A stretch of DNA of 64,000 nucleotides from Isurus oxyrinchus (taxonomy: Eukaryota). The notes under the pieces were generated by a model. The model was given only the letters and a program-made list of their open reading frames with translations. It was not told the origin of the DNA and ran no database searches. The DNA lies in assembly GCA_026770705.1 (NCBI GenBank), contig JANJGN010000007.1, forward strand, positions 108,686,001 to 108,750,000, read 5' to 3'. The position numbers were made by a program, and so were the translations under genes. This document shows, one piece after another, positions 9,295 through 52,980 of this stretch (the first letter of the stretch is position 1; each line of letters starts with the position of its first letter).

Positions 9295-9655
9295 GGGCTG
9301 AAATTTACATCCTGACGTGGTCGGGCCTAAAATCGCACGAGACGACCTCGAGCGAGCATCCCGACGTCATCGTGCACTCGCACGACATTTCACTCAGCAC
9401 GCAAAAGTCGAAGGGCGCCCACTGACAATTAAGAGAGCAATTAAGTTCGTGAACGGCGCAATTGTCTCCGATGTTTCGTGACTCCCACCCCAGCAGCGCC
9501 CAGCATTTCAGTGCGCATTTCGCGTTGGCTGAGCTTGGCCAGCCACTGTCAAATCACTGTCAGAGGCCGGTGGCCGTCGGTAGTCTGTTTCCCTGCTACT
9601 CCTAGGTCAGTCAATTGGCCGCGCTGTAAAATTCAAGCAGTGCTTCGAGCCCATA
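9295..9655. mobile_element. Non-autonomous TIR element (Harbinger-type MITE)
   Basis: Starts GGGCTGAAATTTAC, with GTAAAATTCAAGC near the other end; CpG-rich body similar to the subterminal region of Harbinger 1. Confidence 0.5.
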
Positions 9656-10850
9656 TGACTCATTCAGAGCTGAAAAGAGGTAGAAATGTTATGGATTTTA
9701 TACTGTTGAAGAGAGAAGATGGATAATCATGAGAAAATTAGTTGATCAGGGATAGTGGGAGCTCAGGAGGGATGTCATGGACACAACACAAAGGGAGTGG
9801 TAATGACAATGCTAAAGACTAAGGCAGGTGCTAAAAATTGCATGAAGAGCAGACAGCAGAACATGTCAACAACAGAGCAAAAGTCATCGCTCTCTGAAAA
9901 CAAAACGTAAGAACGTGTTACAGACTGGCCGTGTGGAGGGAGCGGGTTGGGAGAAAAATGTCAACATGGAGGACAGAATTCATGCTCTGAATTTGTTGAA
10001 TCCCTTGATATGTGCGATAATGCTTAATCAGAAGATGATGTGCTGTTCCTCTAGTTTGGTTTGGGGAACTGGAGGAACAGCACCTATTTTTTTTCACCCA
10101 GGTGATTGGGATCTGGAACACACTACCTGAGGGGATGATAGAGGCAGGAACTCTCACAACATTTAAGAAGTATTTGAATGAGCACTTGAAACGCGGTAGC
10201 GTACAGGGTTACGGGCCAAGTGCTGGAAAACGGGATTAGAATAGATAGCCCTGCTTGATGGCCGGCACGGACACGATGGGCCGAAGGGCCTGTTTCTGTG
10301 CTGTATAACTCTATGACTCTATGCGTCATCACCCGCTTATGCAATTTACAACTTTCTGCGCTTAACTTTGAGTTCAACAAATTCAGACCATGAATTCTGT
10401 CCTCCATTTTGATATCCTTTTTCCAACGCCCTTTCCCGACACGGCCAGTCTGTAACGTGTTCTTATGTTTTGCTTTCAGGAAGCCAAGGCCCTTGTTCTG
10501 CTCTTAACACATTCTGTTGTCTGACCTTTAAGTCACCAGTAGCACTTCCCTTAGCCTTTAACAGTATCATTCGCACTCCCTTTGCCCTGTATCTATAAAT
10601 CTTTGGCAAATCTCTCCTAACCTTCCACCTATCCCTGACCATCTGTTTTGCTCCACCTGCCTTAGCCCCTCTCTTCAGCAGTATGCAATATATCACATTT
10701 CTACCTCTCTTGAGCTCTGACGAAGTCATACAGACTCGAAACCTTAACTCTGTTTATCTCTTCACGGATGCCGCTAGACCTATTGAAATTTTCCCAGCAT
10801 TTTTTGTTTTTATTTTAGATTTCCAGCATTGCTCAGTATTCTCCTTTTAC
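9655..10850. mobile_element. Inverted pair of Penelope-like element 3' regions (9655-10060 reverse, 10325-10850 forward)
   Basis: cagagctgaaaagaggtagaaatg (9666) is the near reverse complement of catttctacctctcttgagctctg (10696); the forward copy ends in the shark PLE-type gactcgaaaccttaactctg...tttattttagatttccagcat. Confidence 0.65.
10085..10323 (+). mobile_element. CR1 (HER1-like) 3' tail
   Basis: atgggccgaagggcctgtttctgtgctgtataactctatgactctatg terminus. Confidence 0.88.
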
Positions 10851-16321: not shown

Positions 16322-16615
16322 CATAGAGTCATAGAGTTATATCGCGCAGAAACAGGCCCATCGACCCATCGTGCCCATGCGGGCCATCAAGCGCCTATCT
16401 ATTCTAATCCCATTTTCCACACACGTGGCCCGTAGTCCTCTATGTTGTGGCGTTTCAAAAGCTCATTTGAACACTCCTTAAATGTTCTGAGGGTTCCTGC
16501 CTCTAGCATGCCCTCAGACAGTGTGCTCCAGATTCCAACCACACTCTGGATGAAAAAAAGACCTCAAATCCCCTCTAAACCTCCTGTTCCTTAATTTAAA
16601 CATATGCCTCTTTGG
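16322..16615 (-). mobile_element. CR1 3' tail, same subfamily as 10085-10323
   Basis: catagagtcatagagttat..gaaacaggccc is the reverse complement of the CR1 terminus. Confidence 0.85.
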
Positions 16616-17506
16616 ATATAGTTATAGTTAAAACTATGGTCGTTGATGTTCAGTTAAAGCTTGTCATTTTTTTAATCACATATTTACTTTGGTTTACAGG
16701 CATGTAGCCAATTTGGAAAGCCGATTTAACGTAATTCTCAGGGCTAAAAATGAAATTAAGAGTTGAGATGCCTGTCAGTATTGATCTCCCGAAGCTCGTT
16801 CAATGAGTAAATATCGAATGCTATGTCAGATCTTTGGACAGTGCCGCATTTAAAAAAAAATATTGTCCCATGTTGTGGTACACATGTAAGCATCTGCTTT
16901 ATTTTTTCAACAATTAATAAATTTTAAGATCGCACTAAGATTTCCACGAAGTAATTCGAGTTCATCCTTTTCATTGCGGCTCCTTTATTTTAGCTAATGT
17001 AACAGCGATGCAGAAAGTATTGTGAGGGAAACAACACAAGAGACAAAAACAGTGATGGAAGTGAACTTGTAACATAACATAAATAAAATGGCATTTAAAT
17101 ACGTATCTATAGTGATTATGTCCTTGTTCCATGCATACCATCTTTATTTAATTGCTCCTTATTTAATGCGCCGTCGGCTACAAGTTAATGTTCTGGGGAT
17201 GTCCAGTTCATGTTCAGTGATGCCCGGCCTTCATGCTAGCACTGGTGACAGCACTTCATCGCTTCAACCCTACTGCCTGAAATTCCTCTCCGAAACAATT
17301 ATACATCTGCATTTCTCCAAGCTCAAGAAGGAGCCTCAGTGAAGCTAAATTTAATGTGGATCGGGGGAAATGTTTTCAGTGACTGTAGTCATACCTGGCA
17401 GGAAAATGATTATGTTTGTTTGATACCAACCCTCTCATTCCCTGGGTTGCAAGAGTTCCACGGGGTATTATTACCGGCCCAGCTCTCTTCATCTACATAA
17501 ACAATT

Positions 17507-17571
17507 GCGCTTGGCCTAAATAGCTTAAGTGGTTATGGTACTGGGCTTGAAACCCCCAGATCAAGAGTTCA
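17507..17571 (+). mobile_element. 5' half of a tRNA-headed SINE-like element (Tx1 target)
   Basis: A box TAGCTTAAGTGG (17521-17532), anticodon-like arm CTGGG..CCCAG, B box interrupted at GAGTTCA by Tx1. Preceded by TACATAAACAATT (17494-17506). Confidence 0.8.
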
Positions 17572-17639
17572 TCTTCTTAACGATCTTGTTGAGGCAATTG
17601 TGGATTCAGTTTGTTCCCTGATCCTGAGGAGAGAAGGTC

Positions 17640-17900
17640 TGTGGTGTTTTTGTTGCTGCTCCTCTTCAGTGTTTCAACTGTTTCTGCTGCTGCTTTTGGG
17701 GTTGTTGCTTCTGCTGCTGCCTTGCCCCTGTTTGGACCAAGAGGGAGAGAGGAACAACTGCTGCTGCTGCTTTGGGGTTGTTGCTTCTGCTGCTGTTGCT
17801 GCTTCTGCTGCTGCTCCTCCAGTGCTGCTGCTGCTGCTCCCTTGCCCTTGTGGTGCCAAAGGAGAGAGAGGGAGAGAAGAGAACAGTTGCTGCTATTGCT
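17640..17900 (+). repeat. (CTG/TTG)n-rich low-complexity tract with a duplicated subunit in the Tx1 5' UTR
   Basis: Runs of gctgctgct; ctgctgctgcttttggggttgttgcttctgctgctg and ccttgccc..gagaga..gaaca each occur twice. Confidence 0.85.
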
Positions 17901-18376
17901 ACAGGACAGGAAGGCCAGGAGGCCAGGACTGAGTTCAAAAACAACATCCTAGGTGGGTGTCTGAACTGTGTATTTTTGTTTAAGGTAGGGGCAATTAAGG
18001 ACTGTGTTTTGTAGGGGGAGGCAAGAAGACTGCCAGAGGGGTTGGGGAAGGAAGAGAGGGAGGGTGTGTGTGTGTGCTGAAACCATCTTTCTGCCACCCC
18101 TCCCCCAACCTAGCCCTTCCCGGTAAGGCCAGCAGTAGCTGGTGAAGACATCGCCTCCCCCTGCCTGAAGAACATCAGGCCCCCACACACCGTCCATCCA
18201 CCATCGAGGACACCCACCTGGACATTTACCTCTTTCCCTCCTGTGCCTCCCTGTCTTTTACTCCTCTCCCTCCTCTCCTCTCCTGCCTAAAAGAGGGGAG
18301 GTTGTTTCTACCTCTCTCCCCCACCCCCTTTCCTCCCCAGGGAGGAATACTAATATATATATATAAAAAAAACAAA

Positions 18377-20518
18377 ATGGCCAATCCTTCCCAGGGTGGG
18401 CGTGGCTCAGCACCTAAGGCCAATTCACCATCGCCTGTGGCCGGGCCCTCGAGGGCTAATGTGGAGGTGGTTTTGTCACCGGTGGCAGGGCCTCAAAAAA
18501 AGAAAACCTATGCGGGGGTGATTGCTTCTGCAGCACCAGCTGCTCCTGCTGCCCTGTCACCATTCCGCTTCCTTACCAGGGCCCTCGGGGTTAAGTGCTA
18601 CGCCCACCCGGAGATGACTATTGAGGCCTGCGTGAAGGCTATGGCTGGGGTTGTCGGCCCCTCAGCCGTTGTCGCGGCCTCAAAAATGTATGGGAGGGCC
18701 ATCTTTTTCTTGAGGTCCGAGCGGGCGGTGCAACTCGCCCTGCAGAAGGGGCTCACTGTGGGCGGGACTTTTCTGGCGGTGGACCCCCTTGAGGCCACCG
18801 CCCAGAAGATTGTTATTTCGAACGTCCCGCCCTTTATACCATGTGAGCTCCTCCTCCCCCACCTTAATAAGCTGGGGGAGGTCAGGTCAGGGGTTGCGCC
18901 AGTCCCGCTTGGCCTCAGAGACTCGACCCTCCGCCACGTGTACTCCTTCCGGCGCCAGGTTTTCATCCGTTTGGCCCGGGAGGAGTGCCTGGAGGGGGCT
19001 TTTGTTGTTAATTTTGAGGGGACCGCCTATCGGGTCTTCTGGACCACGGAGGGCGTGCGGTGCCATGCCTGTAAGGAGGCGGGGCACATAAGAAAGAACT
19101 GCCCCGCCTCCAAGGCCACGAGCCCCACCCAAGCGGCCACGGCTGGCACCGCCCCTCCTCCACCCGCCACCACTCCATCTCCCTCCCCGCAAGGGGAAGC
19201 GACCCCGGCAGCAGTTGCCATCTCGGTTGCCGGTGAGGCGGGGGGAGAGCCCCCGCGCCGTAAGAAGGCGCGGAGGAAGACCCGAAATTTGGAGGCGGTC
19301 CCTGAGACGCCCCAGACCCCTCAAACACATGGAAAAACCGGCTCAGGGGAGAAAACATCGTCCGGCCCCGGCATCGTGTCCGCGTGTGCTCCCGGGTCCG
19401 TGGGCACTAAGGCGCCAAGTGCTGGGCCCGGCGTCGTCCCTGCGCGTGCTCCCGGGGCCGGCGGGGAAAAGACGCGGGACCCCGAGCCGAAAGAAAAATT
19501 GAAAACCCAGAGGGTGGAGTGTCCGGGAGGGCTGGGAAAGGAGGAGGGGGCCTCGGAAATGGAGGTCTCCCTAGCCCCCAGCCTGACCCGGAAGAGGCGT
19601 CACACTTTGGAGGAGGAAGTGGGCGATGCCCAAACTGACGAAGTTGGGTGTGTCCCTTCCCCTGATGAAGAGGTGGTGGCGTCTCCACCCAGTAAAACCT
19701 CGCCCTGCCCTCTGTGGGAACCCAAAACTCCTGCACCTACTCCCACCACTGTTCCCCCCGTCAACCTGCTGCAGTCCCCTGAACAGGGCCCCTCGGGGGT
19801 CGCTGAGGGCACCTCCCTTGAGGTGGTGTCCGACTCCAGGGAACTTAATACCCCGGAGGTACTTTCTAGCTCGTCGGGGGATTGCAGGTTTGAAATAGTA
19901 AAGAATATAAATGGGTCATTGGGTGGCGGCGAAAAGGAGGGCCTTCCCGCTCCCTCCCTAACCTTGACACCGGGCATCCTATGTTTAGGTCAGGAGCTTG
20001 TCCTGAGCTCCCCGGACGACCCGGTGCCGGGAGGAGAGCGGGCATCAGAACTGCCGCTGCCCTCTGGCCTAAAAAGTTTCGAGGAGACCAGAGAGGACTC
20101 CTCTGGCCTTGATCCTGGGGGTGGGATCGAGGCTGAGATAGAGCCAGCTGGCAGCTCTGAATCAGCCCCCGTACTCAATGCGGGGGAGGGGTCGGAAGCT
20201 GGAGGCGACAACCCGGAAGAGGACGGGGTGTCGGTGGTGAGCGCTGGGGATTACGCGGAGTCACTCTCAGGCGAGGCGGTGGATCCCCTGGTGCCCTCCA
20301 CTGACTCCCCCCTCATCCCCCCAAGGGAACTCCGGGACTTTTTGTCGGGGAACCGCGGTCGCCGAGACAGGGTTCAGTTGGCCTTGGACCGGTGGCATTC
20401 ATTTCCGCTGGTGTTCTGGTCCACTCGCGAGGCTCTCAAGTCTCCTGAGTTGGATAGGAACGCGCAGCGGAGGGTCCAAATGTTTCTCGCTGGGCTCCTG
20501 AAGGAGAGGAAGGACTAA
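18377..20518 (+). CDS. Tx1 ORF1 protein (713 aa): N-terminal RNA-binding region, CCHC zinc knuckle, long Pro/Ser/Glu-rich tail
   Basis: Open from aaaATGG (MANPSQGG). Contains AASKMYGRAIFFL, ISNVPPFIP, RHVYSFRRQV and CHACKEAGHIRKNC, typical of Tx1 ORF1. Confidence 0.92.
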   Translation: MANPSQGGRGSAPKANSPSPVAGPSRANVEVVLSPVAGPQKKKTYAGVIASAAPAAPAALSPFRFLTRALGVKCYAHPEMTIEACVKAMAGVVGPSAVVAASKMYGRAIFFLRSERAVQLALQKGLTVGGTFLAVDPLEATAQKIVISNVPPFIPCELLLPHLNKLGEVRSGVAPVPLGLRDSTLRHVYSFRRQVFIRLAREECLEGAFVVNFEGTAYRVFWTTEGVRCHACKEAGHIRKNCPASKATSPTQAATAGTAPPPPATTPSPSPQGEATPAAVAISVAGEAGGEPPRRKKARRKTRNLEAVPETPQTPQTHGKTGSGEKTSSGPGIVSACAPGSVGTKAPSAGPGVVPARAPGAGGEKTRDPEPKEKLKTQRVECPGGLGKEEGASEMEVSLAPSLTRKRRHTLEEEVGDAQTDEVGCVPSPDEEVVASPPSKTSPCPLWEPKTPAPTPTTVPPVNLLQSPEQGPSGVAEGTSLEVVSDSRELNTPEVLSSSSGDCRFEIVKNINGSLGGGEKEGLPAPSLTLTPGILCLGQELVLSSPDDPVPGGERASELPLPSGLKSFEETREDSSGLDPGGGIEAEIEPAGSSESAPVLNAGEGSEAGGDNPEEDGVSVVSAGDYAESLSGEAVDPLVPSTDSPLIPPRELRDFLSGNRGRRDRVQLALDRWHSFPLVFWSTREALKSPELDRNAQRRVQMFLAGLLKERKD

Positions 20519-20574
20519 AAAGTCCTCTTCTTCTTTTTAATTACTTAAGGTGAAGGTTTGATGTACCTTTGACA

Positions 20575-23500
20575 ATGAAGACGACTATAGCCAGCCTCAA
20601 CATCCGCGGCAGCAGGGGCGCACAGCGCAGGTTCCAGAACTTCTCGGTCCTCAGGGACGGGAAGTATGCGTTGTGCCTCCTGCAAGAAACCCATACTGTT
20701 CCGGGAGACGAAGCCACGTGGCTCCTGGAGTGGCGAGGGGGGATCTACATGAGTCACCTAGCCTCCAATTCTGGCGGGGTGGCTATCTTGTTGGCCCCAC
20801 ATTTTCAGCCGGAGATCTTGGGGGTCAAGGAGCTGGTGCCAGGCCGGTTGCTGCACCTGACTGTGCGTCTGGGGGGGGGCGGTGCTTCACTTCGTGAATG
20901 TATACGCTCCCCTGGGCACGCAGCAGCAAGCGAGCTTCTTTGAAGAAGTGTCCACTCATCTCGGCTCCATCGACGTTGGCGAGTGCATCGTCCTCGGGGG
21001 AGATTTCAACTGCACCCTCGGGGTCCGGGACTGTCACGGTACCCCGCACTGCACGCGAGGTGTGAGTAAGTTGCGGGACCTGGTCAGGTCCTTCGACTTA
21101 GTGGACGTCTGGCAAAATCTCCATCCTGACTCCAGCGTGTTCACCTTTGTGTCACCTGGAGTCGGAGCGTCCAGACTCGACCGCCTTTAAGTTTCAAAGG
21201 CGTACGTGTCCTGCGTTCCGGCTGCCTCTATACGGCAGGTTCCGTGCACGGACCACCGTCTGGTGTGGGCGGAGCTCACTTCGTTCTGCGCTCGGACGGG
21301 GTCCGCGTACTGGCATTTTAATAACCTGTTGTTGGAAGACCAGCGGTTCCTGGACTCGTTCCGTCGTTTCTGGGCCGGCTGGAGAAGGAAGCAGGGAGGC
21401 TTCCCCTCCTTGAGGCTATGGTGGGACGTGGGCAAGACTCACGTCCGAGTTTTCTGTCAAGAGTACGCGAAGGGGTCGACAAAGAGACGCAAATCCAGGG
21501 TCGAGGAGTTGGAGAAGGAGGTGCTCGACCTGGAGGCACGTCTCCATCAGCCTGATGCGGACCCGGCCCTGCGGTCGGTGTACGATGAGAAGAAGGGCGC
21601 GCTGCGGGACCTGCAATTGGTCGGGTCTCGGGGCGCGTTCGTGAGGTCGCGGATCCGGTTCCTCAGGGAGATGGACCGTGGCTCCCCCTTCTTCTACTCG
21701 CTGGAAAAAAGGCACGGGGTCCGTCAGCAGCTCTTTATGCTGCTGGCCGACGACGGATCCCTTGTCTCAGATCTGGAGGGCATCAGGGCCATCGCCCGAG
21801 ATTACTACACTGCCCTGTTCTCTCCGGATCCGTCTAGCGAGGACGCTTGCAGAGTTTTGTGGGAGGACCTGCTGCAGGTCAGCCCGGAGTGCGCCGGAAG
21901 GCTTGACTCCCCTATAAGTCTGGGGGAGCTGACCGGCGCACTCGACGGTCTTTCTAGGGGCAAATCCCCGGGACTAGACGGGCTGACCGTGGAGTTCTTC
22001 AGGGCGTTCTGGGACGTCTTGGGGAGCGACTTCGCGGGGGTCCTGGGGGAGAGTATCGCTACCGGGGAGATGCCCCTTTCGTGGCGCAGGGCCGTGATTG
22101 CCCTGCTGCCGAAGAAGGGGGATCTCCGCCTTCTTAAAAACTGGTGCCCGGTCTCCCTCCTCAGCACGGACTACAAAATCTTCGCCCGAGCCATGTCTTC
22201 CCGGCTCGGCACCGTGCTGGACCACATGATCCACCCTGACCAGTCCTACACCGTCCCGGACCGAACCATTTATGATAATATCCATCTGGTCCGGGACATC
22301 ATCCACTATTCCCAGAGGGCTGGTCTGTCGAGCGCCTTCCTGTCTCTCGATCAGGAGAAGGCGTTCGACAGGGTGGATCACGGATACTTACTCGGAACTC
22401 TGCGAGCGTTCGGGTTCGGGACGCATTTTGTCGCCCAGATCCGACTTTTGTATACCGCCGCGGAGTGTCTAGTGAAGGTTAACGGGTCCCTGACGGCGCC
22501 CCTTCGCTTTGGGAGAGGGGTACGTCAGGGCTGCCCCCTGTCTGGCCAGTTGTATTCTATTTGCGTGGAGCCTTTCCTGCGCCTCTTGCGGAGGAGGTTG
22601 CCGGGATTGGTCCTGCGCGGGCCGGGCATCGGGGTGGTCCTTTCGGCTTACGCCGATGACGTGCTCCTTATATTTAGTGACCCGGCTGACCTGCAGAGGA
22701 TGCGCGAGTGCCAGGAGGTCTACTCTGCCGCTTCTTCTGCCAGGATCAACTGCGGTAAATGTTCTGGACTCCTGGTCGGTCAGTGGCAGATGGATCCCCT
22801 ACCCGAGGAGCTCAGGTCTTTCACCTGGAGCAGGACCAGCCTCCTCTACCTGGGGGTCCATCTCTGCCCCGCTGAGGAATCCTGGCCGGCAAACTGGCAG
22901 GAACTGGAGACGAAAGTCACCGCTCACCTGCGGCGCTGGACAGGACTGCTCCGAGTGCTATCTTATCGAGGTCGAGTTCTGGTCATAAACCAGCTGATCA
23001 CCGCCATGTTGTGGTATCGGCTGGTCACTTTGACCCCTCCCCTGGACTTTGTCACAAGAATCCAGAGATTGTTAGTCGACTTCTTCTGGGACAAAAGATT
23101 GCACTGGGTCGCTGCCGAGGTTCTGAGTCTCCTGCTTAGGGAGGGCAGTCAGGCGCTAGTGTGCCTACGCACACAGGTGGCGACTTTCCGCCTTCAGACC
23201 CTGCAGCGATACCTCTACATTGAGCCTCCTCCTAGATGGTGTGCCCTGATGACGTATTTCTTCCATCAGGTGCACGGCCTGAATTATGACGTGCAGCTCC
23301 TGTTTATAGAACAGCTGGGCCTCGGTGGCTCCTTGCAGGCGTTGCCCATCTTTTACCAGGACCTGATCAAAGTCTGGAAAGTGGTCGCCTCACGACGCAG
23401 CTCTCCCCCGTCAGGAGTAGCGGCTATCGTCAGAGAGCCACTGCTCAGGAATCCGCCCCTCCGTCCCTTTCAGTGGTTGGCGGAGAGGAGGGCTGTGGCC

Positions 23501-24466
23501 GCAGGGGTGACCAGGATCGGGGACGTGCTGGGTGGTGGAGGACTGGGCTGGATGCTCCTGCAGGAGTTGGCGCGACGCGCGTCTGTGAGTGTCCAGGTCG
23601 CAGCCGATGCCATCCAAGACCTGAGAACGGTCGTGTTCGGACCCGACGTTATTTTGGGTCTTGAGGTGGTCCAGGTGCGCGGTGGTCTTCCGTCTGAACG
23701 TTCCCCTGTTCGGACAGAATTCCACATTGGCCCCAAGCCCCGAACCCTCCCTAGGGTGCTGGGGCCCCGCAATATGAGCCGCCTCGGGGACATGCCCTCC
23801 GTGCCTTTTAGCACAGCAAAGAGAGGCTTTTTGTACAGACTGCTGCTGCACACCTTCCATTTTCTAGCCCTTGTCCGCCGCCCGGACATGCCCTGGCGTG
23901 CCTTGTTGCCGTCCGGCGGTGGAGGCCCCCGATGGGAGGCCCTCTATGGAGGTGTCCTCCCCCTTTCTATCGGGGACCTGGGTTGGAGGGTGTTGCATGC
24001 AGCAGTCCCCTATAATAAGAGGATGCATAGGTTCACGGACTCTCAGGACACGTGCCCTTTTTGCGGTCTTGTGGAGTCCGTGGACCATGTATACATAGGG
24101 TGTTGTAGGCTGCACTCCCTTTTTAGTTATTTGAAAAACCTTTTATTGATGTTTTGTTTGCACTTCAGCCCCACGCTCCTGATCTATGGGCACCCGGTGC
24201 GGAAGGGGGTCGGGAAGGAGGAGGACCTCCTCGTGAACCTGCTCCTGGGCCTGGCCAAGTTGGCCATTAAAAGGTCCAGGCGGCGGGCGATCGACGGGGG
24301 AGTCCCGCCCGATTGTTTGTCCCTCTTCCGCGGCTACGTTCGCTGCCGGATGTCCCTGGAGAGGGAGCACGCGGTGTCTGCTGGCAGTCTCGAGGCCTTC
24401 CGTGCTCGGTGGGCACCGCGGGGACTGGGGTGTTTTGTTGACCCCTTTAATCACATTTTGATTTAA
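20575..24466 (+). pseudogene. Tx1 ORF2 (APE endonuclease, reverse transcriptase, C-terminal zinc finger), ~1296 aa when repaired
   Basis: APE motifs LQETH, GGDFN, RLDR, TDH. RT motifs LDQEKAFD, RQGCPLSG, AYADDV. Zinc finger CPFC..ESVDHVYIGC. +1 frameshift in the G9 run at 20871-20879 and TAA at 21188-21190; the remaining 1086 codons are open. Confidence 0.93.
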
Positions 24467-24575
24467 AGTTTGTAAGTTTCCTTTAAACTTTGTTCTTGGT
24501 TTTACAGCTGACCTGAATTAGGGGCTGTGCCTGATTTATCCCGATTTTGTTGATTTGGTTTTCATTTAAAAGATT

Positions 24576-24748
24576 ATCAAGAGTTCAAATCTCACAATGG
24601 CAAACTATGAAACACTAACTTCATCTGAAACAGATGGGAACGGGTTTGTACTCGAAAGAAATCAAGAGTTCAAATCTCACAATGGCAAGCTATGAAACAA
24701 TGTAACTTCATCTGAAACAGATGGAAACAGGTTTGTACTCGAAAGAGT
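24576..24748 (+). mobile_element. Two tandem copies of the SINE 3' half (24576-24660 and 24661-24748)
   Basis: Both begin ATCAAGAGTTCAAATCTCACAATGGCA (B box) and end GTTTGTACTCGAAAGA. They differ by ~4 substitutions and a 2-nt indel. Followed by TACATAAACAATT (24749-24761). Confidence 0.88.
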
Positions 24749-26429
24749 TACATAAACAATTATGTTCTCCGCATTATCAGGTCAGCAGTGGGACTGCTTG
24801 CCAATGATTGCACAGTGATCAGTTTTACTTGCAATTTCTCAAGTGTAGTTCATGTCTGCACATGCAAGATCTTGGACAATATCTAAGATTTGGCCGATAA
24901 TTTACAAGATTCATGCCATACAAGATCCAGGTAATCACCATCTCCAATATAATGGAGCCTAGCCAGTTCTCTTTGACTGGTAACCGAATTACAGTTGCAA
25001 AATTCACCACCGTCTTTGATCTGGAGGTAACCAGTGATTGCAACATGAACTGGAACAGCCATAATTGCTGTGGCCACGAAAGCATGTCAGAGACTGAGTA
25101 TTGTGCAGTGCCTAGCTCACCTCACGACTCCCCAAAGCTTCTATACCACTAAAAGGTGCAAGTCAGGAGCGTGATGGAAAATCCCCCACTTTTCTGGAAA
25201 GGTGCATCTGCAACAACATTGCAAAAATATACTTGGAGCTGTTCAAGAGACAGTTTGATTGAGCTCTGTATAACCTACTGGACTAAATATCTAACTTGAA
25301 ATAATTATCTCCAGGCGATAGTTATGAAGAAGTTTGAAAGCTTCAGATGTGTAGTACAAAGCACTTATATTAAAATGGAAACTGCAGCTGTTTTCCTTTT
25401 TGATGGATTGCAGTTAATTAAAACAATACAGCGAAGTATATTCTGACGTTTAACGCTTTCGCCGCAGGAAGAGCAGTTAAAATGAAAGTTTATTCTGGTA
25501 TCCTCTAATGGGAACTTCTGCTTTATCATAAAATCTCTTGAGAAGGAGCTGCTGTGCAATTTTTTTATTATTCGTTCTTCGCTAGTAAAGCCAACATGAT
25601 TTACACATGGCTAGTTTCCTGACAATGTGATGGTGCGTCTTTTTGAACCACTGGAATAGTAAATAGAAAATGGGACAATACCAAAATCAGCAGTTGTTGG
25701 CAGGCAGGTGAATTGCACCCATGTGACAAGGAGCCACTAGAAATGTAATGGGGCAATCTTCAATTTCCACTTGAGAAAGGGAAATATCTTTAGGCTCAGG
25801 CCTCATGCCAGTGGTGAGCTGCAGGTACCAAACAGTAAAATTGCTGCAGCTCGCCAGTTGCAAAACGGTAGGAAATCGGCCAGTTCCTATGCTAAGCACG
25901 AAGAGGTGAAGAAAATCTCAGGGGCCAGAGGTTGGTACTCACATAGCCAGACAAGGAACAGAATACTTTGGGTACAGGAAGTGCAAGCCTACTCTTCATG
26001 GGCTCACAAAAATAAAGATTAGAGATTTGTTGCATCGCATTTTCAGTGGCCTCCAATGGATAGTTAAAGGTTGGTCAACACATATAATGTGCATGTAGAG
26101 TGTCAGTGATGCCACACAATCAATTGCCTCACAAAATTACAACTGGGATTTTCAGTTTGGTGCAGGACCTTACTTCGCAAAGTCAGGAAACCTCTGAAAA
26201 CAGACAAGGCACCTGCTCAGCCATTTACAAGCCTACCTGAAAATTGAATCAGTTGCTGGTGTGCCTCTCGCAATTTCCATGTGAGAAACAGGCAGCTGAA
26301 AACCATTCCCAATATTTACACATGGGCAAAGCATAAGCACTTTTACACTAACACCAGCAGCTCTAATGTTGGAACTCGAAGCCTTTGCAAGTAACAAATG
26401 AATAGCTGCTAGGTAGGCAGTTGGGTTAT

Positions 26430-27478
26430 ACCTATCACCAAGAAAGATGCTTGTCCTTGTTGGAGATCAATCATCTCAGTTCCAGGACATCACTGCAGGA
26501 CTTCCTTAGGGTAGTGTCCTGGGACCAACCATCTTCAGCTGCTTCAGCAATTACCTTCCTTCCATCATAAGGTCAAAAATGGGGATTTTTGTTGATTGTT
26601 GTACAACGTTCAGCAGCACTCGCTACTCGTGAGATACTGAAACAGTGCATGCCCAAATGCAACAAGTCTTGGACAATATCCAGGCTTGGGCTGACAAGTG
26701 GCAAGTAACATTCGTGCCACACAAGTACCAGGCAATGACCATCTTCAACAATACAGAATCTATTTCCCCTTGACATTCAATGGCATTACCATTGCTGAAT
26801 CCCCCAATATTAACATCCTTTGGGTTTCTATTGATCATAAACTGAACTGGACTAGCCATATAAGTACTGTGACTACATCAGCATGTTGGAGGCTAGGAAT
26901 CCTGCGGTGAGTAACTCACCTTCTGACTCCTTAAAGTGAGCCCACATTCTACAAGGCACAGGTCATGAGTGTGATGGAATACTCCCCACTTGCCTGGATG
27001 TTTGCAACTCAAACAACACTCAAGATGCTTGACAGCATCCAGGACAATGCATCCCGCTTGAATGGCACTCCATACGCAAACATTCACTCCCTCCACAAAT
27101 GGAACAAGATGGCAGCAGTGTGAGCCATTCACAAGATACAATGCAGGAATTCACTGAGCCTCCATTGACAGTACTTTCCAAGTCCATCATCGCTGTTAAT
27201 TAGGACAAGTGCATGGGAACATGGAAACACCACACTTTTAGTCTCCCCTCCAAGCCAGTCACCACCCTGACTTTGAAATAAATCACCATTCCTTCACTAT
27301 TGCTAGGTCAAAATCCTGGAAATCCCTACCTAACAGCACTGTGGGTGTGCCTACATATCATGAACTGCAGCAGTTCAAGAAGGCAGGTCACCACCCCCTT
27401 CTCAAGAGCAATTCGGGATGGGCAATATATGCTGGCCTAGCTAGTAACACCCACATCCTTTGAATTAATTTTAAAAAT
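26430..27478 (+). mobile_element. LINE family B 3' fragment
   Basis: Colinear with 7240-8236; tail ctcaagagcaattcgggatgggcaatatatgctggcctagc. Confidence 0.88.
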
Positions 27479-33929: not shown

Positions 33930-35165
33930 TCATGCATCTGTTGCCCTAGCTGCATACCTGATGGCCTACAAAGGTTGTAGAAGACAGTGATGAGAGCGAA
34001 TGGGGCACCTGGCTGTGTAAAGGCAGGAGCAGCAGCCTCATGAAGAAGGGGCAGCAAACTGCCCAAGATTGACAGTGAGTCTTGGTTGGTCGGTGTCTAG
34101 AGACACATAGGGTCTGTAGCCATCTGCCATTCCTGCAGATGACTGAGAGCCTGTGTCGTCGACGGCTGAGCATGTCTAGGGACCTGGTGGCTCACACTTG
34201 TCACTTACTGCAGGACTTGGCTCCAAGGGGACTTGGAAGGCATCCACTGCCAGTGGCTGTGAAAGTGGATGTGGCGTTCAATTTCTCTGCCAGTGGCCCC
34301 TTTCAGCATTCTATAAGTGACCTCTGTGGGATTTCACAATCTGCCACCACAAAAATTCATCCATGAGTTCACGGAGTGCATCTTGTCCATGGCACACAAC
34401 TTTGTACATTTTGCCCGGGACTGGGACAGCCAGAATGCAAAGGCCATTGGATTTGCCATGATCTTTGAATTCCCATGGTTGCAGGGTGCGAATGACTGCA
34501 CTCATGTGGTGTGCAGGTCTCTATCACTACACTCAGTGGGTTTAATCAACCACAAGGGCTTCCACTCACTGAATGTGCAGCTGGTACGTGACCACCAGAA
34601 ACACATCCTGCAGATCTGCGCACGGTTTCTAGGGAGTGTGCATGATGCCTACATCCTAAGTTGCTCGCAGATCTCTGCAGTCTTCTAAGGTCCACAGCAG
34701 CTGCAGAATTGGCTCCTTGGTGAAAAGGGCTACATACAGATGCCATGGCTTATGACATCCATGCAGCGGCCTCAGACTGTAATAGAGCGAGGCTATAATG
34801 AGGCTCATGCAGCAGCTTTATTTGGTTGGAGCAGACCATCGGGATGCTGAAGATGTGATTCTGGTGACTGGACCGGTCTGCTGGAACCCTGCAATACAGT
34901 CCGCAGAGGGTATCACGCCTTGTTGTTGCCTGCTTTGCCCTTTACAAATTGGCCCTGCAATGGGGTAAGGAGCTGGCTGTGGAGGAGATGGAGGAACTGT
35001 AGGTTTTCTTCAATGAGGAGGACACTGACGGGGATGAGAGTGAGTGGGCCCTCGGTCATGATGACGATGGGGATGAAGCTCTCACCCTGGCTAGATGAGG
35101 CAGGTGCTCTAGGGAAGCCCTCACAGCTGCCAGCTTTGTGGAGGACGATGGCAAAATGCAGTGAG
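33930..35165 (+). pseudogene. Harbinger DDE transposase pseudogene
   Basis: [43 protein letters not shown]; LQGANDCTHV..NHKGFHSLNVQLVRD..ARFLGSVHDAYIL; WLLGEKGY..PWLMT; EQTIGMLK; acidic tail. Confidence 0.9.
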
Positions 35166-35727
35166 GTGTCCTCGTAGGTCCTCACATCGCAGTCGTGAAT
35201 GTTTGACTCCAGTCTATCTTTTTGCAGCGCCAATACCCTCAATGAGAATGCTCTTGTCATGGAAATGAGTGAAGGCCCTAATTGTCGCTCGATCGCAGGG
35301 GGATAATGACAACATGCATTGAGGACATTCCTTAGATCTTCACATGGCCTCTGAGAATGTCTGACTCCTGTCTAGCCAAGAGCAGCTCACTTGCACTCCA
35401 TGATCAGGAACAAATAAGACTTGGCTTGCACAGAGTGAGAGGAGAAAATGTGGCTGTCATTGGTGAAATAGATGAAGAAACAGATTCTGCAAGAGATTTG
35501 GGAAATATCAGAGCTGAACCTTGAAATTCTGTGGTACACTGAACCACGAAAGGACTTTATGAATGCATGGGTGTTATTGAGGAGAGTGGGAAACTTTTAC
35601 GGCAGTGCATGTAGGAAATTTGATGTCCGAAGGATGAAATAATATTTCTGATTTGAATATTTTTATGCCTTTGTAGTTTTGAATATGTGCATAAATATTT
35701 TTTAAAACTTGAGCAAAATGTTTAATT

Positions 35728-37447
35728 CTCTGGAAGAGATTGGCAGGATTGGACTTCAGGGTGGTCCTCTCGGCTAATGCCGGTGACATGCTTTTCATAT
35801 TCACTGACCTGGCTGAGCTGTGGAGGATGCACGAGTACCAGGAGGTTCACTCTGCCACGTCCTCTGCCAGTAGCAACTGGGGCAAATATTCTGGATTCCT
35901 GGTTGGTCAGCGGTAGATGGATCCCTGCCCGAAGAGATCAGGCCTTGCACCTGGAGCAGGACCAGCCTCATCAACCTACATGTCCATCCCTGCCTTGCTC
36001 AGGAATCCTGGTCTGCGCAATGGCAGTAGCTGGACACCAAAGTCACCATTCACCTGCAGTGCTGGACAGGCTTGCTCCAAATGCTTTCTTACCGGAGCTG
36101 AGTTCTGGTCATAAACCAGCTGGTTGCCACTGTGCTGTGGTACTGGCTGGACATATTGGCCCCGCCCCCAGACATTGTCACGAAAACCCAGGGAATGCTC
36201 GTCGACTTCTTCTGGAGCAAAGGCTGCTGAGGTTCTGTGCCTCCCACTTAGGGAGGGCGGTCAGGCGTTGGTCAGTGTGAGCACCAGGTGGCGACTTTCC
36301 ACATTCAAGCCCTGCAGTGATACCTTTATGTCGAGCCCACACTAAGATGATGTGCCCTGGTGACGTATTTCTTCCATCAGGTGAAGGCCTGAATTATGAC
36401 ATGCAGCTCCTGTTTGTGGACTAGAGGGCCTTTGTGGCTCCTTGCAGGCGTTGCCCATCTTTTAACAGTACTTGATCAAAGTCTGGAACATGGTCACCTC
36501 GTAACACAGCTGTGCCATTAGGTGTAGAGCCTATCGTCAGAGAGCCGCTTCTCAAGAATCCACCCTCTGACCTTTTCAGTGGCTGGCAGAGAGAAGGGGT
36601 GTGGCTGTCAGGGTGACCAGAATCAGGGACATTCTGGGTGGCGGAGGTCTGGGCCGAACGCTTCCATAGGAGCATCGTGCTTCCGGCTCGTGGCCAATGC
36701 CATTCATGACCTAAGGGCAGCCGTGTTTGGCCCCAATGTCATCCTGGCTCTCCAAGTGGCCCAGGTGTGTGGTGCTCTTCTGTCTATGCATACCCCTTTT
36801 TGGATGGAATTCCACATTGGCCTCAAGCCCCGAACGCTCCTTCGGGAGCTGGTGCCCTGCAACCTGTGTTGCCTCATGGAAATACCCTTCATGACCTTTA
36901 GCACGGTGCAGAGTGGTTTCCTGTATGGACTGCTGCTGCACACTTTTCACTGATTTGCCCTCACCTGTTGCTCGGAAACGTCCTTTCATGCCTTGTTGCC
37001 GTCAGGAAGTGGAGTCTCACAGTTGAGGTTCTCTACAGGGGTGTCTTCCTGCTTTCCATCAGGGAACTAGGGTGGAGGGTGTTGAATGCAGCAGTCTCAT
37101 ACAGCAGCAGGTTGTGTCAGTTCACGGGCTCCCAAGACACCTGCATCTTTTATGGCCTTGTGGGTCCATGAACTATGTATATATAAGGCTCTGTAGGCGG
37201 CACCATTTTCAGTTTCCTGAAAAAACTTTTACTGTTGTTTTGTTTGCACTTCAGTCCCAAGCTCCTGATTTACGGGCACACATTGCAGGAGGAAGGAGGA
37301 CATCCTTGTAAACCTGCTCCTGGGCCTGGCCAAGTTGGCCATTATACCTTTGTCTTTAATTTTTTACATTTTCCCTAATTTGGGGAGATGTATTTATTTT
37401 GTCCTCAATTTTGTTAATTTATTTTATTTGGTTGACTCAAAAGTGTT
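35728..37447 (+). mobile_element. Old 5'-truncated Tx1 copy A (3' part of ORF2 plus 3' UTR)
   Basis: Colinear with 22590-24270 of the young element; T-rich tail ending TTGGTTGACTCAAAAGTGTT. Confidence 0.88.
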
Positions 37448-37450
37448 AAT

Positions 37451-39372
37451 CCTCTGGAGGAGGTTGCACGGGATTGGTTCTGCAGGGGCCACGGTGGTCC
37501 TCTTGGCTAACACCGATGACATGCTGCTCATGTTTACCAACGTGGCTGACCTGCAGAGAATGCTCGAGTGCCACAATGTCTACTCTGCTGCATCCTCTGC
37601 CAAGATCAACTGCAGCGAATGTTCTGGACCCTTGGTCAGTCAGTGGCAGATGGATCCCCTACCCGAGGAGCTTAGACTTTCACCTGGAGCAGGACCTGCC
37701 TCTTGTGGCTGGGGGTCCACCTCTGCCTTGCTGAGGAATCCTGGCCGGCAAACTGGCAGGAGCTGGGGACTAAAGGTGCCACTTACCTGCAGCGCTAGAC
37801 AGGACTGCTCCAAGTGCGGTCTTACTGTGGCCGAATTCTGGTCATAAACCAGTTGATTGCTACCATGCTGAGGTACCAGTGGGTCACTTTGACCCCTACT
37901 CTGGACTTTGTCACAAACATCCAGAGAATGCTCATCAACATCATCTGGGACAAAAGGCTGTTCTGGGTCGCTGCTGAGATTCTGAGTCTCCCGCTTAGAG
38001 ATGACACTCAGGCGCCGTTGTGCCTGCGACTTTCCACCTTCAGGCCATGCAGCGGTACCTTTACATTGAGCTCCCACCGAGATAGTGTGCCAAGGCGACG
38101 TATTTGGTACTCCAGCTTCATGGCCTGGAATATGATGTGCAGCTCCTGTTTGTAGACCTGAGGGGCCTTCGTGGCTCCTTCCAGGTGTTGCCTGTCAATT
38201 ATCAGGGCCTCATTAAAGTCTGGAACGTAGTCGTCTCACCACGCAGCACTCCACCATCAGAAATAGCGGCTATCATCAGAGAGCCGCTGTTGAGGGATCC
38301 ATTCCCGCTTCCATTTCAGTGGCTGGGAGAGAGGAGGGCATTGGCTGCCATGGTCACCAGGTTTGGGGATGTGCTGGTGGAATGGGCTGGATGCTACAGG
38401 AGGAGTTGGCGCATCTTGCACCTGTCGATGTCCGGCTCATGGCCAATACTATTCATGACCTTAAGTCGTTCTTGCTCTACCCCGACATCGTCCTTGGTCT
38501 CAAGGTGATGCTGCTACATGTTGGTCTTCTGTCTGAGCTTACCTTTGTTTCCAAGCAATCCCACATAGCCCCAAGCCCAGAACCCTCCCTCAGGAGCCAG
38601 CGCACCGCAACCTCAGTCGACTCGCAGAAATGCCCTCCATGTCCTTTAGCACAGCGTGCAGGGTTTACTGTATGGGCTGCTGCTGCACACTCTTCACTTC
38701 CTTGCCCTCACTCGCTGCCCAGACATGCCTTGGCATCCCTTGTTGCTGTTGCATAGCGGAGGTCCACAGTGGGGTGTCCTCTACAGGGGTGTCCTCCCAC
38801 TTTCTATCAGGGAACTGGGGTGGAGATTGTGGCACGCAGCAGTCCCATACATCTGTAGGTTCTGTCGATACCTGCATCTTTTGCAGCCTTGTGGAGTCCA
38901 TGGACTATGTTTATATAAGATGTTGTAGGCTGCACTTCCGTTTCAGTTTCCTGAAAAACATTTTGTTGATGTTTTGTTTGCACTTTAGTCCCAGGCTCCT
39001 GATTTATGGGCACCCGGTTCAGAGGGGGACCTGGACGGAGGAGGACCTCCTCATGAACCTGCTTTGGGCCTGGCCATTAACAGATCCAGACAATGGGCGG
39101 TCAAGGGGGTCATCCAACCTGAATGTCCTTCTTCCATGGCTATGCCCGCAGCTGGTGTCCCTGGAGAGGGAGTATGCAATGTCTGCCGGCACCATTCTTG
39201 TAGGGCAACGCAGGGACTGGGGTATTTTATTGACGCCCCTAAGTCACATTTTGGTTTAATGTTTGTAAGTTTCCTTTAAATTTTGCCTTTTTTAACAGTC
39301 TTCCTAATTTAGGGGCTGGGTTTATTTTGTCCCTCATTTTGTTAATTTAGTTTAATTGGTTGACTCCAAACA
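37451..39372 (+). mobile_element. Old 5'-truncated Tx1 copy B
   Basis: Colinear with 22590-24570 (degenerate YADD read as ANTDD); tail TTGGTTGACTCCAAAC. Confidence 0.9.
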
Positions 39373-42300
39373 AGTTATTTCTCCCTGATTGGTCTCAGAA
39401 GCATCTCGTTGCTACTGCAGGTTTCGTTTGTTGCTTCCTGTGGTTCTGGCTGCTGTTTTGTTGCTGCTCTGAGATTTCCTTCTGGTTGTTCCCACTGCTT
39501 TTTTTCTGTGTCTGTCCCTGGATGCTATGGGCTTTCCTTATGGCTGTTCCTACTGTGTTATTCCTGTAGCTCTATTTCTGTAGCTTTATTTCTGCTGCTG
39601 TTCTTGCAAGGCCAGAGACATGAAGAATTGGAGGAGAGAGGGGGAGAGAGAGGAAGTGCTGCAAGGCAGAGAGACAGACAAGGTGCTGCAAGGCAGGGAT
39701 GCCAGGAAGCAAGGAGTTTTTCATTACACCTGGGGTAGGTGTGTAGACTTCTGTTTGGTCAGGTCTGTGAAAATCGTGGTACTCTGCAGGTGGAGGAAGA
39801 AGAATGTGAAGTGACCCGCGGAGAAGGGGTGTTTGCATGTGTGTGCATTTAAGATCTTGCACCACTCTCTTACCCTTCTTGCCCTGCCCGTTACCAAGTC
39901 CAGGTAGCAGGTGCTGCCTGCTGAACATGGACGGACCTGACTTCCATTTGCCAGGCAGTACCCGCTGTATAGTGAAGACATTGCCCTCCCCCTATGGGAA
40001 GGACAGCTAAGCCACCACCACCCCGCTCCACTCCACTCAGCGACACCTGCCCACCCTGCACCCATTACCCCTCCCCTTCTTTGCCACTCTAACTTTTCCC
40101 CTCTCTCTCTCCTCCCCTTCCACTTTTCTAAACCATCAGGATGGAGATTGTAATGTTTTGCCATCTTCCCCTCTATTAACGCTGTTGCCACCAACAACAG
40201 GGCTCAGGGCGGGTGTGACTCATCCCTTAATGGCTGCCGTGAGGTCACTGGTTGCCGGGCTCTCTGGGGCAGCTGTGCAGGTGGCTATATCACCAGTGGT
40301 GGGGCCCGCCAAGAAGATCTATGCGGGAGTGACTGTTTCGGTGGCCTCCATTACTCCCGCGGCCCCATCACCATTCCGCCTCCTGACCAGGGCCATGGAG
40401 GTAATGGGTTGCATTCACCCTGAGATGACTGTGGAAACATGTGTGAAGGCTTTGGCCGGGGTTGTCAGCCCTTCGGCCATTGTTGTGCCTGCACCCATGT
40501 ATGGGAATGTGCTGTTCTTCCTGAGGCCATAGTGGGCGGTACACCTGGCCCTGGCCAAGGGGTTCACTGTTGGCAGGACCTATCTGGCGTTGGATCCCCT
40601 TGAGGCCAATCTGGAGAGGCTGGCCTTACTCAGCGCCCCATCATTCATTCCCGGTGAGCTCCTCCTTTCCCACCTTCACAACTTAGGGAGGACAGGTCTG
40701 GGGTGGTGCCGATCCCTCAACCTCAGGGAACACAGTCTCCAGCACATGTGCTCCTTTAGAATCAGGGCTTTCTTCACCTGGCCCAGGAGAAGTGTGCAGA
40801 GGGGCGTTTGGATGTCACCTTTGAGGGGGCCGCATCCCATGACTTCCAGTTGGCAGATGGCGTGTGGTACCATGCTTGCAAGTCTGACAGGGCTGCCCCA
40901 TCCCAAAGGCCATCAGCACCACCCAGGCAGCCACAGCTATCACCACCTCTCCTCCACGCGCCACCATGCCATTTTGCTCCCCGCAAGGTTGACCTTGAAG
41001 AAGCAGACCCCCTGATTCCCCAGAATCCCAAAAACCTCTCTGAACCAAGAACACTGATGATACCAGCTTGGGGGGAAATAAATCATTTGGCCCTGGCGTC
41101 ATGTCCGCACATGCTCCCGGGCCTGTGTGCACCTGAACACCATCTTCTGCACCCAGCATCATCCCTGCACGGATTCCCAGGTCTGGCGGCAATGGGACTG
41201 GTGGCCTCAAGGTGGTGGTCTTGTCAAAAAGGGTGGACGTGCCAAAACCCTGGAATTTGGAGCATCCAGGAGGGCTTGGTGACGCGATAGGGTCCTAAGC
41301 TCGCAGCCTACCCCAGAAGAGATGTCACCCCTCAGAGAGGGAGGATCTTCTGACTCATGAGATTGAACATTTCCCCACCCCAGTGAAGAGGTTGTGGCAT
41401 TTCCAGCCCAAAAGTCCTTGCCCTGTCCTCTGGGGGAGTCAAAACCTCCATTCCTTCACTGCGCTCCCCTGAGGGCCCCTTCGGGGTTGGTGAGGGTACC
41501 GCCTTCACCGTGATGCCCTACCCCAACCCACCTTGTACCCATGAGAAGCCATATGGCCTGCCAGGCGAAGAGGAGGGCCTCCCTGCTCCATCTCAGCCCC
41601 TGGAGCCGGATGCTACAGTTCTGCGCCCGGAACTTGTTCCAGATTTGCTTGTTGACCCGGTGCCTGAGGCGGAGCGAGTCTCTGAACTGCTGCCACCCTC
41701 TGACCTGGAAACCTGAGAGGAAACCAGAGATGATCCCTCTGCCTTTGATTTTGGAGGTGGGATCGAAGCAGAGGTAGAGCCAGCTGGCAGCTCCAAATCA
41801 GCCGCTGCACCCCATGGTGTGGTCAGAAACTGGAGGCAACGACCCAGAAGATGATGGGTGCTGATACCGAGAACCGCCAACGACCTTGTTAGTTGGAGCC
41901 AGGTGAGGTGATGCGGGCTTTGGTGTCTGCTGTTGACTCCCCCTCTTCCCCATTGGGGAAATTTGGGGTTCTTTGGTGATTAATCTCATCCGCTGAGGCA
42001 GGATCTAGTTGGCCTTGGGCCAGTGGCATTCGTGTATGTTGGTGTTCTGGCTAATCTGCCAGGCCCTAAAAGCCCCTGAGTTGGACTGGAATACCGGCAA
42101 AGGGTCCTTGCATTTCTCACGGGGCTCCTGAAGGAGAGGGAAACTTAAAAAAGTCCTCCCCTTCTTGCACTTATTGAGGGGTGATGGTAGCACATATTAG
42201 TGATAATGAAGGCTACCATAGCTAGCCTGAACCCCAATGGCAGCAGGGACACACAGCACAGGTTCCAGAATGTCTCAGTTCTCAGGGACAGGATATATGC

Positions 42301-44495: not shown

Positions 44496-44499
44496 AGTG

Positions 44500-48294: not shown

Positions 48295-48859
48295 CTGGAA
48301 GAAAAACAGCATGACATATAAGGGACAGAAGATGCTGGAACACCTCAGATGTGTCAGCAACTTTATTGCCTGGAGTGGCATTTTGAAACATGATGACCAT
48401 GGAGATTTGTGATTCTCAAAGTATTGAATGAACCAATTTCATAAGAAGTCACACATTTATGTAGTACTTTTAAAATGTAGTCGCCATTGTACCATAAGAA
48501 ACAATGAATTTTCCAACAGCATTGCCCATGGACAGAAATTGAGATAATGATGAGTTTACCTGTTTTAGTGATGTTTGTTGAGGCCCACAACTCTTTGCAT
48601 TTAACTATGGTACCACATGCGATAACCAATTTGTCATAAAGCCCCAAACAAGTGAACCAATCCTTAAAATGATGGATAATCCACACAGAATATGAAATTG
48701 AAATACTGTTGCAGGAGAGATGATGTAAAACCACAATAGTCTGAAAGCATATTGTAAGCTACATAATCTAGCCAATGTGTACCTTAATCTACAAACCAGA
48801 TGACAACATTTTAGGTTCTAAAGGGGAGGAACATTTTTATTTTCCATTCAGATGTAGGA

Positions 48860-49625
48860 TGATCAGTGGCAAGTAACATTGATGCCAGACAAATGCCAGG
48901 CAATGACCACCTCCAAGAAGAGAAAATATAACCAAATCCCTTTGACATTCAACAGCATTAACAGTACTGAATTCTCTAACATCAACACCCTGAGGGTAAC
49001 TATTGACCAGAAACTGAACTGGACCAGCCATATAAATACTATAGCTATAAGAGCAGGAGAGAAGCTGGGAAGTCTCTGACAAGTAACTCACCTCTTGATT
49101 CCCCATAGCCTGTTCATCATCTACAAGGCATAAATCATCTGTAAGATGGAATATTCTCCACTTGCCTGGATGAATGCAGCTCCATCTTTGCTTAGGAACT
49201 CATCCAGGACCAAGAAACCCACTTGCTGGCTCCCGTCCACGACCATAAACATTTACTCCCTCCAGCACCGACACACACTGGCAGCTGTGTGTACCACTTT
49301 CAAGATGTACTGCAGAAACTCGACAACACCTTCCAAACCCACAACTTCAAGAAAGTGTAAGGACAAGGGCAGCAGAGGCATAAGAAACCACCACCTGGAA
49401 TTTCAACTCCAAGCTACACACCGTTCTGAAATAAATTGCTGTTTCTTCGTTGTCCTTGGGCCAGGAAACTGAAACTCCTTTCCTATCGGCCTAGTGGGTG
49501 TGCCTACATCAGATGCACTGCATTGGATCAAGAAGGCAGTTCACCAACTCATCTCAAGGGCAACTGCAGACAGGCAACAAAAGCTGGTCTTGCCAGTGAT
49601 GCTCACATCCCATGAAAGGATAAAA
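48860..49625 (+). mobile_element. LINE family B 3' fragment
   Basis: TLRVTIDQKLNWTSHINT; same tail as the other copies. Confidence 0.85.
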
Positions 49626-52440: not shown

Positions 52441-52603
52441 TGGTGGTAGTCTAACTTGTGGTGATGCATCATGAGATGTTGAAGAAGTGGTTGCCTCTGA
52501 ACCACTCTTTGGTAGCATCTTTCCATGAACTAGCAATCTGGGAGGTTCGCCAATGCTAAGTCTTGATCAGCCTGCTAGTGACTACCAACATCCTGGAAGA
52601 TAT

Positions 52604-52980
52604 CACTGACCAGAAACTGAACTGGACGAGTCATATAAATACTGTGATTACAGCAGCAGGTCAGCGGCTGGGAATTCTGTGGTGAGTAACTTACCTCCTG
52701 TGTCCCCATAGATTGTCCATCATCTACCAGGCACAACTCAGGAGTATGATGGAATAGCCTCCACTTGCCTGGAAAAGTATAGCTCCAATAACACTCAAGA
52801 AACTCAACATCATCCCGGAAAAAGCAGCCTGCTTGATTGGCACCTCAACCACCACATTGAACATCATTACCCCCACCACTGACACACAGTGGTAGCAGTG
52901 TGTATCATCTACAAGATGCACTGCAGGAACTCACCATGGATCATCCCAAAGCACCTTCCAAACCTGTGGCCTCTCCCAGT
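52604..52980 (+). mobile_element. LINE family B internal fragment
   Basis: cactgaccagaaactgaactggacgagtcatataaatactg, colinear with 49005-49340. Confidence 0.8.

Follow-up and report, generated by a model that had tools for sequence, protein, structure and literature searches.

How did a second, diverged copy of the 3' half of a short element come to lie directly behind the Tx1 retrotransposon that interrupts this same element? The locus occupies part of the 64-kb stretch of DNA analyzed here (the window). A first-pass annotation proposed that the extra piece is the footprint of read-through, in which Tx1 RNA carried along part of the short element (the host) that surrounded a donor Tx1. We regard this read-through interpretation as partly supported, and at this one locus it is inseparable from two rivals. 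The anatomy fits, the host has a Tx1-like tail, and there is no polyA signal to end the Tx1 RNA, but the argument from divergence between the two tails is weak and the rivals lead to the same structure. The features of the locus are collected in Table 1.

Table 1. Features of the Tx1 insertion, its host element and the duplicated host 3' part, with positions in the window.
Feature	Position	Strand	Remarks
Host left TSD	17495-17506	+	13 bp if 17494 is counted; exact repeat at 24750-24761
Host 5' part, tRNA-like	17507-17559	+	box A-like motif at 17521-17532 (pattern match)
12-mer target copy 1 (Tx1 left TSD)	17560-17571	+	box B broken at junction
Copy A, non-LTR retrotransposon assigned to the Tx1L lineage	17572-24575	+	7.0 kb
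ORF1 of copy A	18377-20518	+	713 aa, open, CCHC zinc knuckle
ORF2 of copy A	20575-24466	+	APE endonuclease, reverse transcriptase, zinc finger; broken
Copy A 3' terminal 20 nt	24556-24575	+	resembles host 3' end
Inner duplicate	24576-24660	+	12-mer copy 2 at 24576-24587; box B at 24583-24591; hairpin; tail ends 3 nt early; extra A at 24660
Outer, original host 3' part	24661-24749	+	12-mer copy 3 at 24661-24672; box B at 24668-24676; hairpin at 24707-24725; Tx1-like tail at 24730-24749
Host right TSD	24750-24761	+	13 bp if 24749 is counted
Substitution, inner/outer	24604/24689		A/G
Substitution, inner/outer	24638/24725		G/A
Substitution, inner/outer	24642/24729		G/A; CpG retained by inner copy, lost by outer copy
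Fourth substitution, inner/outer	~24615/24700-24702		adjoins the 2-nt gap

If the host is written as L-T-R, where T is the 12-mer ATCAAGAGTTCA, then the locus reads L-T-Tx1-T-R'-T-R. The 12-mer occurs exactly three times on both strands of the 64-kb window (at 17560, 24576 and 24661), and no further copy with one mismatch is present in the window, where 0.61 copies with at most one mismatch are expected by chance. The annotated duplicate of about 85 bp is real, and it does begin exactly at the target site, with the 12-mer at 24576 and again at 24661. Alignment of the inner copy (24576-24659) with the outer copy (24661-24746) yields 80 identical columns of 86 and recovers the reported divergence of about four substitutions and a 2-nt indel. 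An assembly artefact is rejected, because the copies differ at five places and their ends are unlike.

The inner copy was also said to stop at the terminus of the short element, which requires correction. It ends 3 (or 2) nt before the host terminus, and a single extra A comes after it at 24660. The junction is one edit away from a host that is cut 3 nt early, two edits from a slippage hybrid, and three edits from the full host end. Thus, the inner end does not correspond to an ordinary full-tailed SINE end. As annotated, no second host 5' half is found in the window by nhmmer. This absence decides nothing, because a SINE insertion truncated at its 5' end and joined through the 12-mer yields an identical sequence. 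The predicted fold of the inner copy (-11.5 kcal/mol) is weaker than that of the outer copy (-16.3 kcal/mol), and both host 3' parts are more stably folded than shuffled sequences (z -3.15 and -2.33).

Once Tx1 and the duplicate are subtracted, a non-coding element of 142 nt that was inserted with a TSD remains as the host. The 12-bp repeat of this host TSD has only two exact copies in the window, and it sets the host end at 24749 (or 24748). Deletion of positions 17507-24761 in silico yields an empty site that matches old repeats across the junction, at 26424-27027 (E 6e-54) and 7142-7813 (E 9e-42). Because the empty site is continuous across the junction and with the flanking repeat, the block represents a TSD-flanked insertion. 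The old repeat that the host interrupts (17400-17506 and 24762-25218) has additional copies at 48857-49190 and 52592-52801. A motif resembling a reverse transcriptase, read by eye at the empty site, is the sole basis for viewing this repeat as a LINE; the Tx1 ORF2 profile gives no match to it, and Pfam finds nothing in two short frames.

The host element likely derives from a tRNA. An exact box B lies 46 nt from a box A-like motif, and ARAGORN makes a weak tRNA call on the empty site at thresholds of 70 or less, with nothing at 80-100. Rfam matches the host 5' half to tRNA-Sec at E 5.4 only, with no match at the gathering score, and ARAGORN predicts no genes in the whole window. The 12-mer overlaps the start of box B, and the left junction with Tx1 breaks this box. 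No further host copies were found in the 64-kb window by blastn or nhmmer, and the diverged inner copy hints that others exist only if it is derived from RNA.

Several smaller observations concern the host sequence. AACT followed by TCA occurs within the host body at 24703-24710 and 24616-24623; this is not the site used and may be chance. AGTT, which is the reverse strand of this AACT, is reported downstream of the Tx1L nick (PMC1950540). A 21-nt stretch matched once in a scan of genome contigs, in an archaeal MAG, which we attribute to chance because there is no similarity outside the pattern. A literature search with three short motifs of the element returned no paper.

Protein comparisons place the insert in the Tx1L lineage of the Tx1 clade. 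The best named full-length match for its ORF2 is the 149-kDa Tx1 protein of Xenopus (50% identity over 99% of the query), whereas among all proteins found an unnamed fragment of 372 aa comes closest (82% identity). In a quick tree of 21 proteins, whose composition is uneven, copy A groups with Tx1L, turtle and sturgeon sequences (SH-aLRT 98). Such relatives point to a vertebrate source, and repeat motifs near 10270 may suggest a cartilaginous fish. The zinc knuckle of ORF1 has the form C-x2-C-x4-H-x4-C at residues 229-242, and its zf-CCHC match (E 0.004) falls under the curated cut-off. The reverse transcriptase domain of ORF2 matches RVT_1 at E 8.7e-35, the endonuclease matches are weak and lie on two broken pieces (E 0.004 and 0.024), and a tblastn alignment of Tx1L ORF2 covers residues 1-1291. 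The 5' UTR of copy A includes CTG-rich repeats at 17660-17900.

A relationship between the host and Tx1 is suggested by their 3' ends. Three Tx1 copies in the window retain a 3' end, namely copy A and two relatives designated B and C, and all three resemble the last 20 nt of the host. When this 20-nt tail is anchored at its end and compared with all window positions, the ends of B, C and A rank 2, 14 and 42 of 127,522, and with 25 nt they rank 53, 53 and 923 of 127,512. The ends of B and C were set by eye after the likeness was noticed, whereas for A the 12-mer gives an independent end point. Without anchoring, the likeness is modest, in that windows scoring equally well make up 10.8% for A, 1.0% for B and 3.4% for C. 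On the 12-bp reading, the two insertions have TSDs of equal length, and the host and all three Tx1 ends finish with TT before A.

From the Tx1-like tail we infer that the host is probably a SINE mobilized by Tx1 enzymes. The same likeness would explain how reverse transcription might start at the host end, and it also makes possible rival routes that lead to the same structure. A stem-loop common to the Tx1 and host 3' ends was considered and rejected, because the Tx1 ends fold no better than shuffled sequences (z -0.12, -0.81 and +0.63). Two other tail-like positions, 45466 (the top-ranked one) and 61460, are judged to be chance matches, with no TSD within 8 kb upstream. Aside from the parallel start of B and C, no target 12-mer with a matching partner follows the ends of these two copies.

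The first-pass annotation set the divergence of the two tails against a Tx1 that it described as almost intact. Copy A is more damaged than this description implies. Its ORF2 has a frameshift at a run of nine G nucleotides (20871-20879), a stop codon at 21188-21190, and about seven missense changes of the CpG type. At columns that are invariant among 71 full-length relatives of the 120 listed, copy A differs at 5 of 90, and six controls examined in the same manner differ at 1/91, 1/91, 8/98, 1/91, 4/94 and 0/90. Copy A also departs from conserved codons at 22 of 254 positions. We read seven of these as CpG-type decay (48 such routes are intact) and one or two as other decay, with the rest representing lineage features or changes left unassigned. 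At codons conserved with the 82% relative, copy A differs at 8 of 177 (three of the CpG type) and the relative itself at 15 of 184. A single stop in 2006 codons corresponds to ~0.55% non-CpG decay (upper bound ~3%), and none of the 18 CpG-to-stop routes has decayed in copy A. Collectively, these values put decay at roughly 0.2-1.5% for non-CpG sites and 5-13% for CpG bases. Copies B, C and a third relative, D, carry 10-19% private changes over all codon positions. By these estimates copy A is young beside copies B-D, yet it is not pristine.

Two 84-nt copies as old as this insertion are expected to differ by 0.3-2.4 non-CpG substitutions, versus the 2-3 substitutions and one indel observed. 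A joint test of equal age under six readings gives P values of 0.010, 0.020, 0.033, 0.052, 0.125 and 0.164, and the substitutions alone give P values from 0.014 to 0.37. With the decay of copy A measured in this manner, the divergence of the tails exceeds the age of the insertion only weakly. The annotated argument retains some force in four of the six readings (P 0.01-0.05) and loses it in the other two (P 0.13-0.16). Overall, the divergence leans toward separate origins for the two tails, short of proof.

One route needs no RNA. Local DNA duplication after Tx1 insertion, through slippage or repair between the similar Tx1 and host tails located ~87 nt apart, would duplicate exactly the segment from the 12-mer to the host end. 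Target specificity would be unnecessary as well, and the likeness of the tails would provide microhomology and account for both boundaries. The observed non-CpG substitutions also overlap the range expected for copies of the same age. However, a clean product of slippage is two edits away from the junction as seen, and four of the six joint P values fall between 0.01 and 0.05. We consider local duplication to be unlikely, although it deserves to be weighed.

The account that we place first, although with less than even confidence, is that the inner 85 nt were acquired by 3' transduction through read-through. A donor Tx1 would have interrupted a different copy of the short element, likewise at the 12-mer, and its transcription would have continued beyond its own end into the 3' half of its host. 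Reverse transcription would then have started at the Tx1-like tail of the donor host instead of at the Tx1 end, and Tx1 together with the donor host 3' half would have been inserted here in one event, with a TSD at 17560-17571 and 24661-24672. The donor perhaps was already double-tailed, in which case the 85 nt would represent the captured 3' end of a Tx1 subfamily. The first-pass annotation took this TSD to be the true one. On that reading the extra segment indeed lies inside the TSD, but the pair 17560 and 24576 fits the sequence equally well.

Read-through agrees with an inner copy that runs exactly from the 12-mer to within 3 nt of the host terminus. In addition, neither AATAAA nor ATTAAA occurs in 24276-24900, which spans the last 300 nt of Tx1 and the duplicate, so nothing of that kind stops the Tx1 RNA at its own end. 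The weaker fold and odd end of the inner copy might suit a decayed genomic donor better than an active master. Against this route, the RNA-type 3' end of an L1-type transduction is lacking, since there is one extra A and no polyA signal. This L1-type mark may be inapplicable, as the Tx1 and host ends at this locus are also without polyA. Likewise, the host has no run of four T nucleotides and no polyA signal to end an RNA there. Neither a donor locus nor a second Tx1 at the 12-mer target is present in the window.

A further objection to read-through concerns priming. The 12-mer behind the Tx1 end could pair with the primer and thereby fix the start of reverse transcription at Tx1's own end. 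For R2Ol, downstream rDNA promotes priming at the element end, which rises from 12% to 96% with 100 nt of rDNA (PMC6530143), and downstream rDNA likewise promotes priming at the element end for R1Bm (PMC7265360). This objection does not apply if Tx1 enzymes acted in trans on an independent SINE RNA and inserted it at the 12-mer, either before or after the arrival of Tx1 or, through a template switch to Tx1 RNA, during one and the same event. The SINE cDNA would carry the complement of the 12-mer and could anneal to the cut target, producing a truncation at exactly this position and no second 5' half. Judging from how target-primed reverse transcription operates, this route predicts a sequence identical to that expected from read-through. 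With its Tx1-like tail and a TSD of 12 bp, the host is a likely Tx1 client, and a CpG lost by the outer copy survives in the inner copy. There is also a precedent in tandem SINEU-3 insertions at Tx1-Mar targets, where the TSD is sandwiched between the copies and the events are read as sequential (PMC4494074).

Other features fit insertion in trans less well. Three terminal nucleotides of the host copy are missing from the inner copy, and both the weaker fold and the 2-nt gap belong to the inner copy. The host copy itself resides in an unrelated old repeat, so its mobilizer is not bound to the 12-mer, and two events at one site are required. We view insertion in trans as a tentative alternative that ranks behind read-through and ahead of local duplication. 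An RNA-templated origin of either kind, by read-through or in trans, is rather probable.

A different possibility is that the block 17507-24749 jumped as a ready composite, or that the doubled tail arrived with the host for an unrelated reason. One perfect TSD of 12-13 bp surrounds the whole block, at a site unlike the 12-mer, and some crocodilian Tx1 families carry heads derived from snRNA (PMC4494074). However, a short perfect TSD says little about age, and the left junction disrupts box B, so the 5' part is unable to act as a normal pol III promoter. Moreover, no promoter is evident that would begin a 7-kb RNA at the exact 5' end of the host. We hold a composite origin to be very improbable. 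The weights that we assign to these four routes are judgements and not the result of computation.

If read-through is correct, a broader scheme can be imagined in which Tx1 mobilizes a tRNA-derived SINE through a shared tail, cuts this SINE at box B, and carries its target along by read-through. Tx1 would then spread its own landing sites while silencing the promoter of each SINE that it enters. We consider this closed loop to be doubtful. Only one Tx1 insertion at the 12-mer is seen, and copies B-D all lie outside this host element. In addition, the added 12-mer differs from the native site in its upstream context. At a single locus, target specificity of Tx1 and the annotated idea that each jump adds a fresh, usable target are both conjectural.

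The arrangement most closely resembles Tx1L inserted in Tx1D of Xenopus laevis, where an element with two ORFs, an APE endonuclease and a reverse transcriptase likewise lies inside a small non-autonomous element (PMC4494074, PMC1950540). Tx1D is a DNA transposon, whereas the host described here is tRNA-like and has a TSD and a Tx1-like tail. Target specificity has been shown for Tx1L, whereas we observe one insertion only. Known targets of Tx1 elements include microsatellites and snRNA genes as well as other mobile elements (PMC4494074). The crocodilian SINEU and Tx1-Mar elements are also similar in that the SINEs are inferred to be moved by Tx1, and tandem insertions with a TSD between them occur at a common target (PMC4494074). 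SINEU elements have heads derived from U1 or U2 and end in polyA, whereas our host has a tRNA-like head, no polyA and a tail like that of Tx1. For SINEU-1, the same report (PMC4494074) describes no LINE with the same 3' end, whereas the host tail resembles Tx1. The target shared by SINEU and Tx1-Mar is Mariner and not the SINE itself (PMC4494074), whereas here the SINE appears to be the target.

Transductions by L1, R1Bm and R7Ag also leave the downstream flank inside the TSD (PMC7265360). An L1 transduction starts at a downstream polyA tail, whereas this locus has a single A, and reverse transcription is proposed to have started at a tail that mimics Tx1's own. The piece carried here would be the target itself. 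Pairs of tRNA-derived SINEs and LINEs, including HE1 with HER1, SacSINE1, and SINE2-1_CM with CR1, similarly have a tRNA-like head, a short body and a 3' end shared with the LINE (PMC3747384). None of the pairs in Table 1 of that paper has a Tx1 partner, and the shared stretch here is only ~20 nt. The main text of PMC5786205 does not mention Tx1.

Separately, 3' transduction, Tx1 insertion into mobile elements, and SINEs driven by Tx1 are each already on record. The literature searched, with Repbase, Dfam and most subscription journals outside its scope, includes no tRNA-derived SINE that has a Tx1-type tail and is also a Tx1 insertion site, and the family may already be catalogued. If our interpretation is borne out, Tx1 would join the LINE clades that have SINE partners with shared tails, and the locus would offer a natural read-out of where the Tx1 reverse transcriptase starts when one RNA has two similar tails. 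It would also exemplify a target-specific element that generates targets for itself. Were the duplicate instead a product of local slippage, the pairing of SINE and Tx1 tails alone would remain. This pairing, together with insertion at box B, is the more durable lead.

Additional repeats are present in the window. Three older Tx1 relatives are arranged head to tail (B, 35714-37447; C, 37448-39376; D, 39377-44497). They are 69-76% identical to copy A and ~71% identical to each other, and D lacks ORF2 residues ~435-790 in addition to its 3' end. B and C start at the same internal position of ORF2 (Tx1L residues 671-675), and the sequence preceding this start is common to both (35714-35760 and 37438-37480) even though the copies are 71% alike. 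The parallel start could reflect either an old tandem duplication or a non-autonomous derivative of 1.8 kb. Just upstream of this cluster is a DDE_Tnp_4 transposase remnant (34317-34685, E 7.7e-07), which we take to be of the Harbinger type. One crocodilian Tx1 family prefers Harbinger elements (PMC4494074). A long inverted repeat at 9644-10740 (~73% identity over 370 nt) encloses a short repeat between its arms, and this enclosed repeat recurs at 16322-16559 (minus strand) and 55846-56644. Finally, a decayed reverse transcriptase fragment at 54584-55351 is 22-23% identical to Tx1 ORF2.
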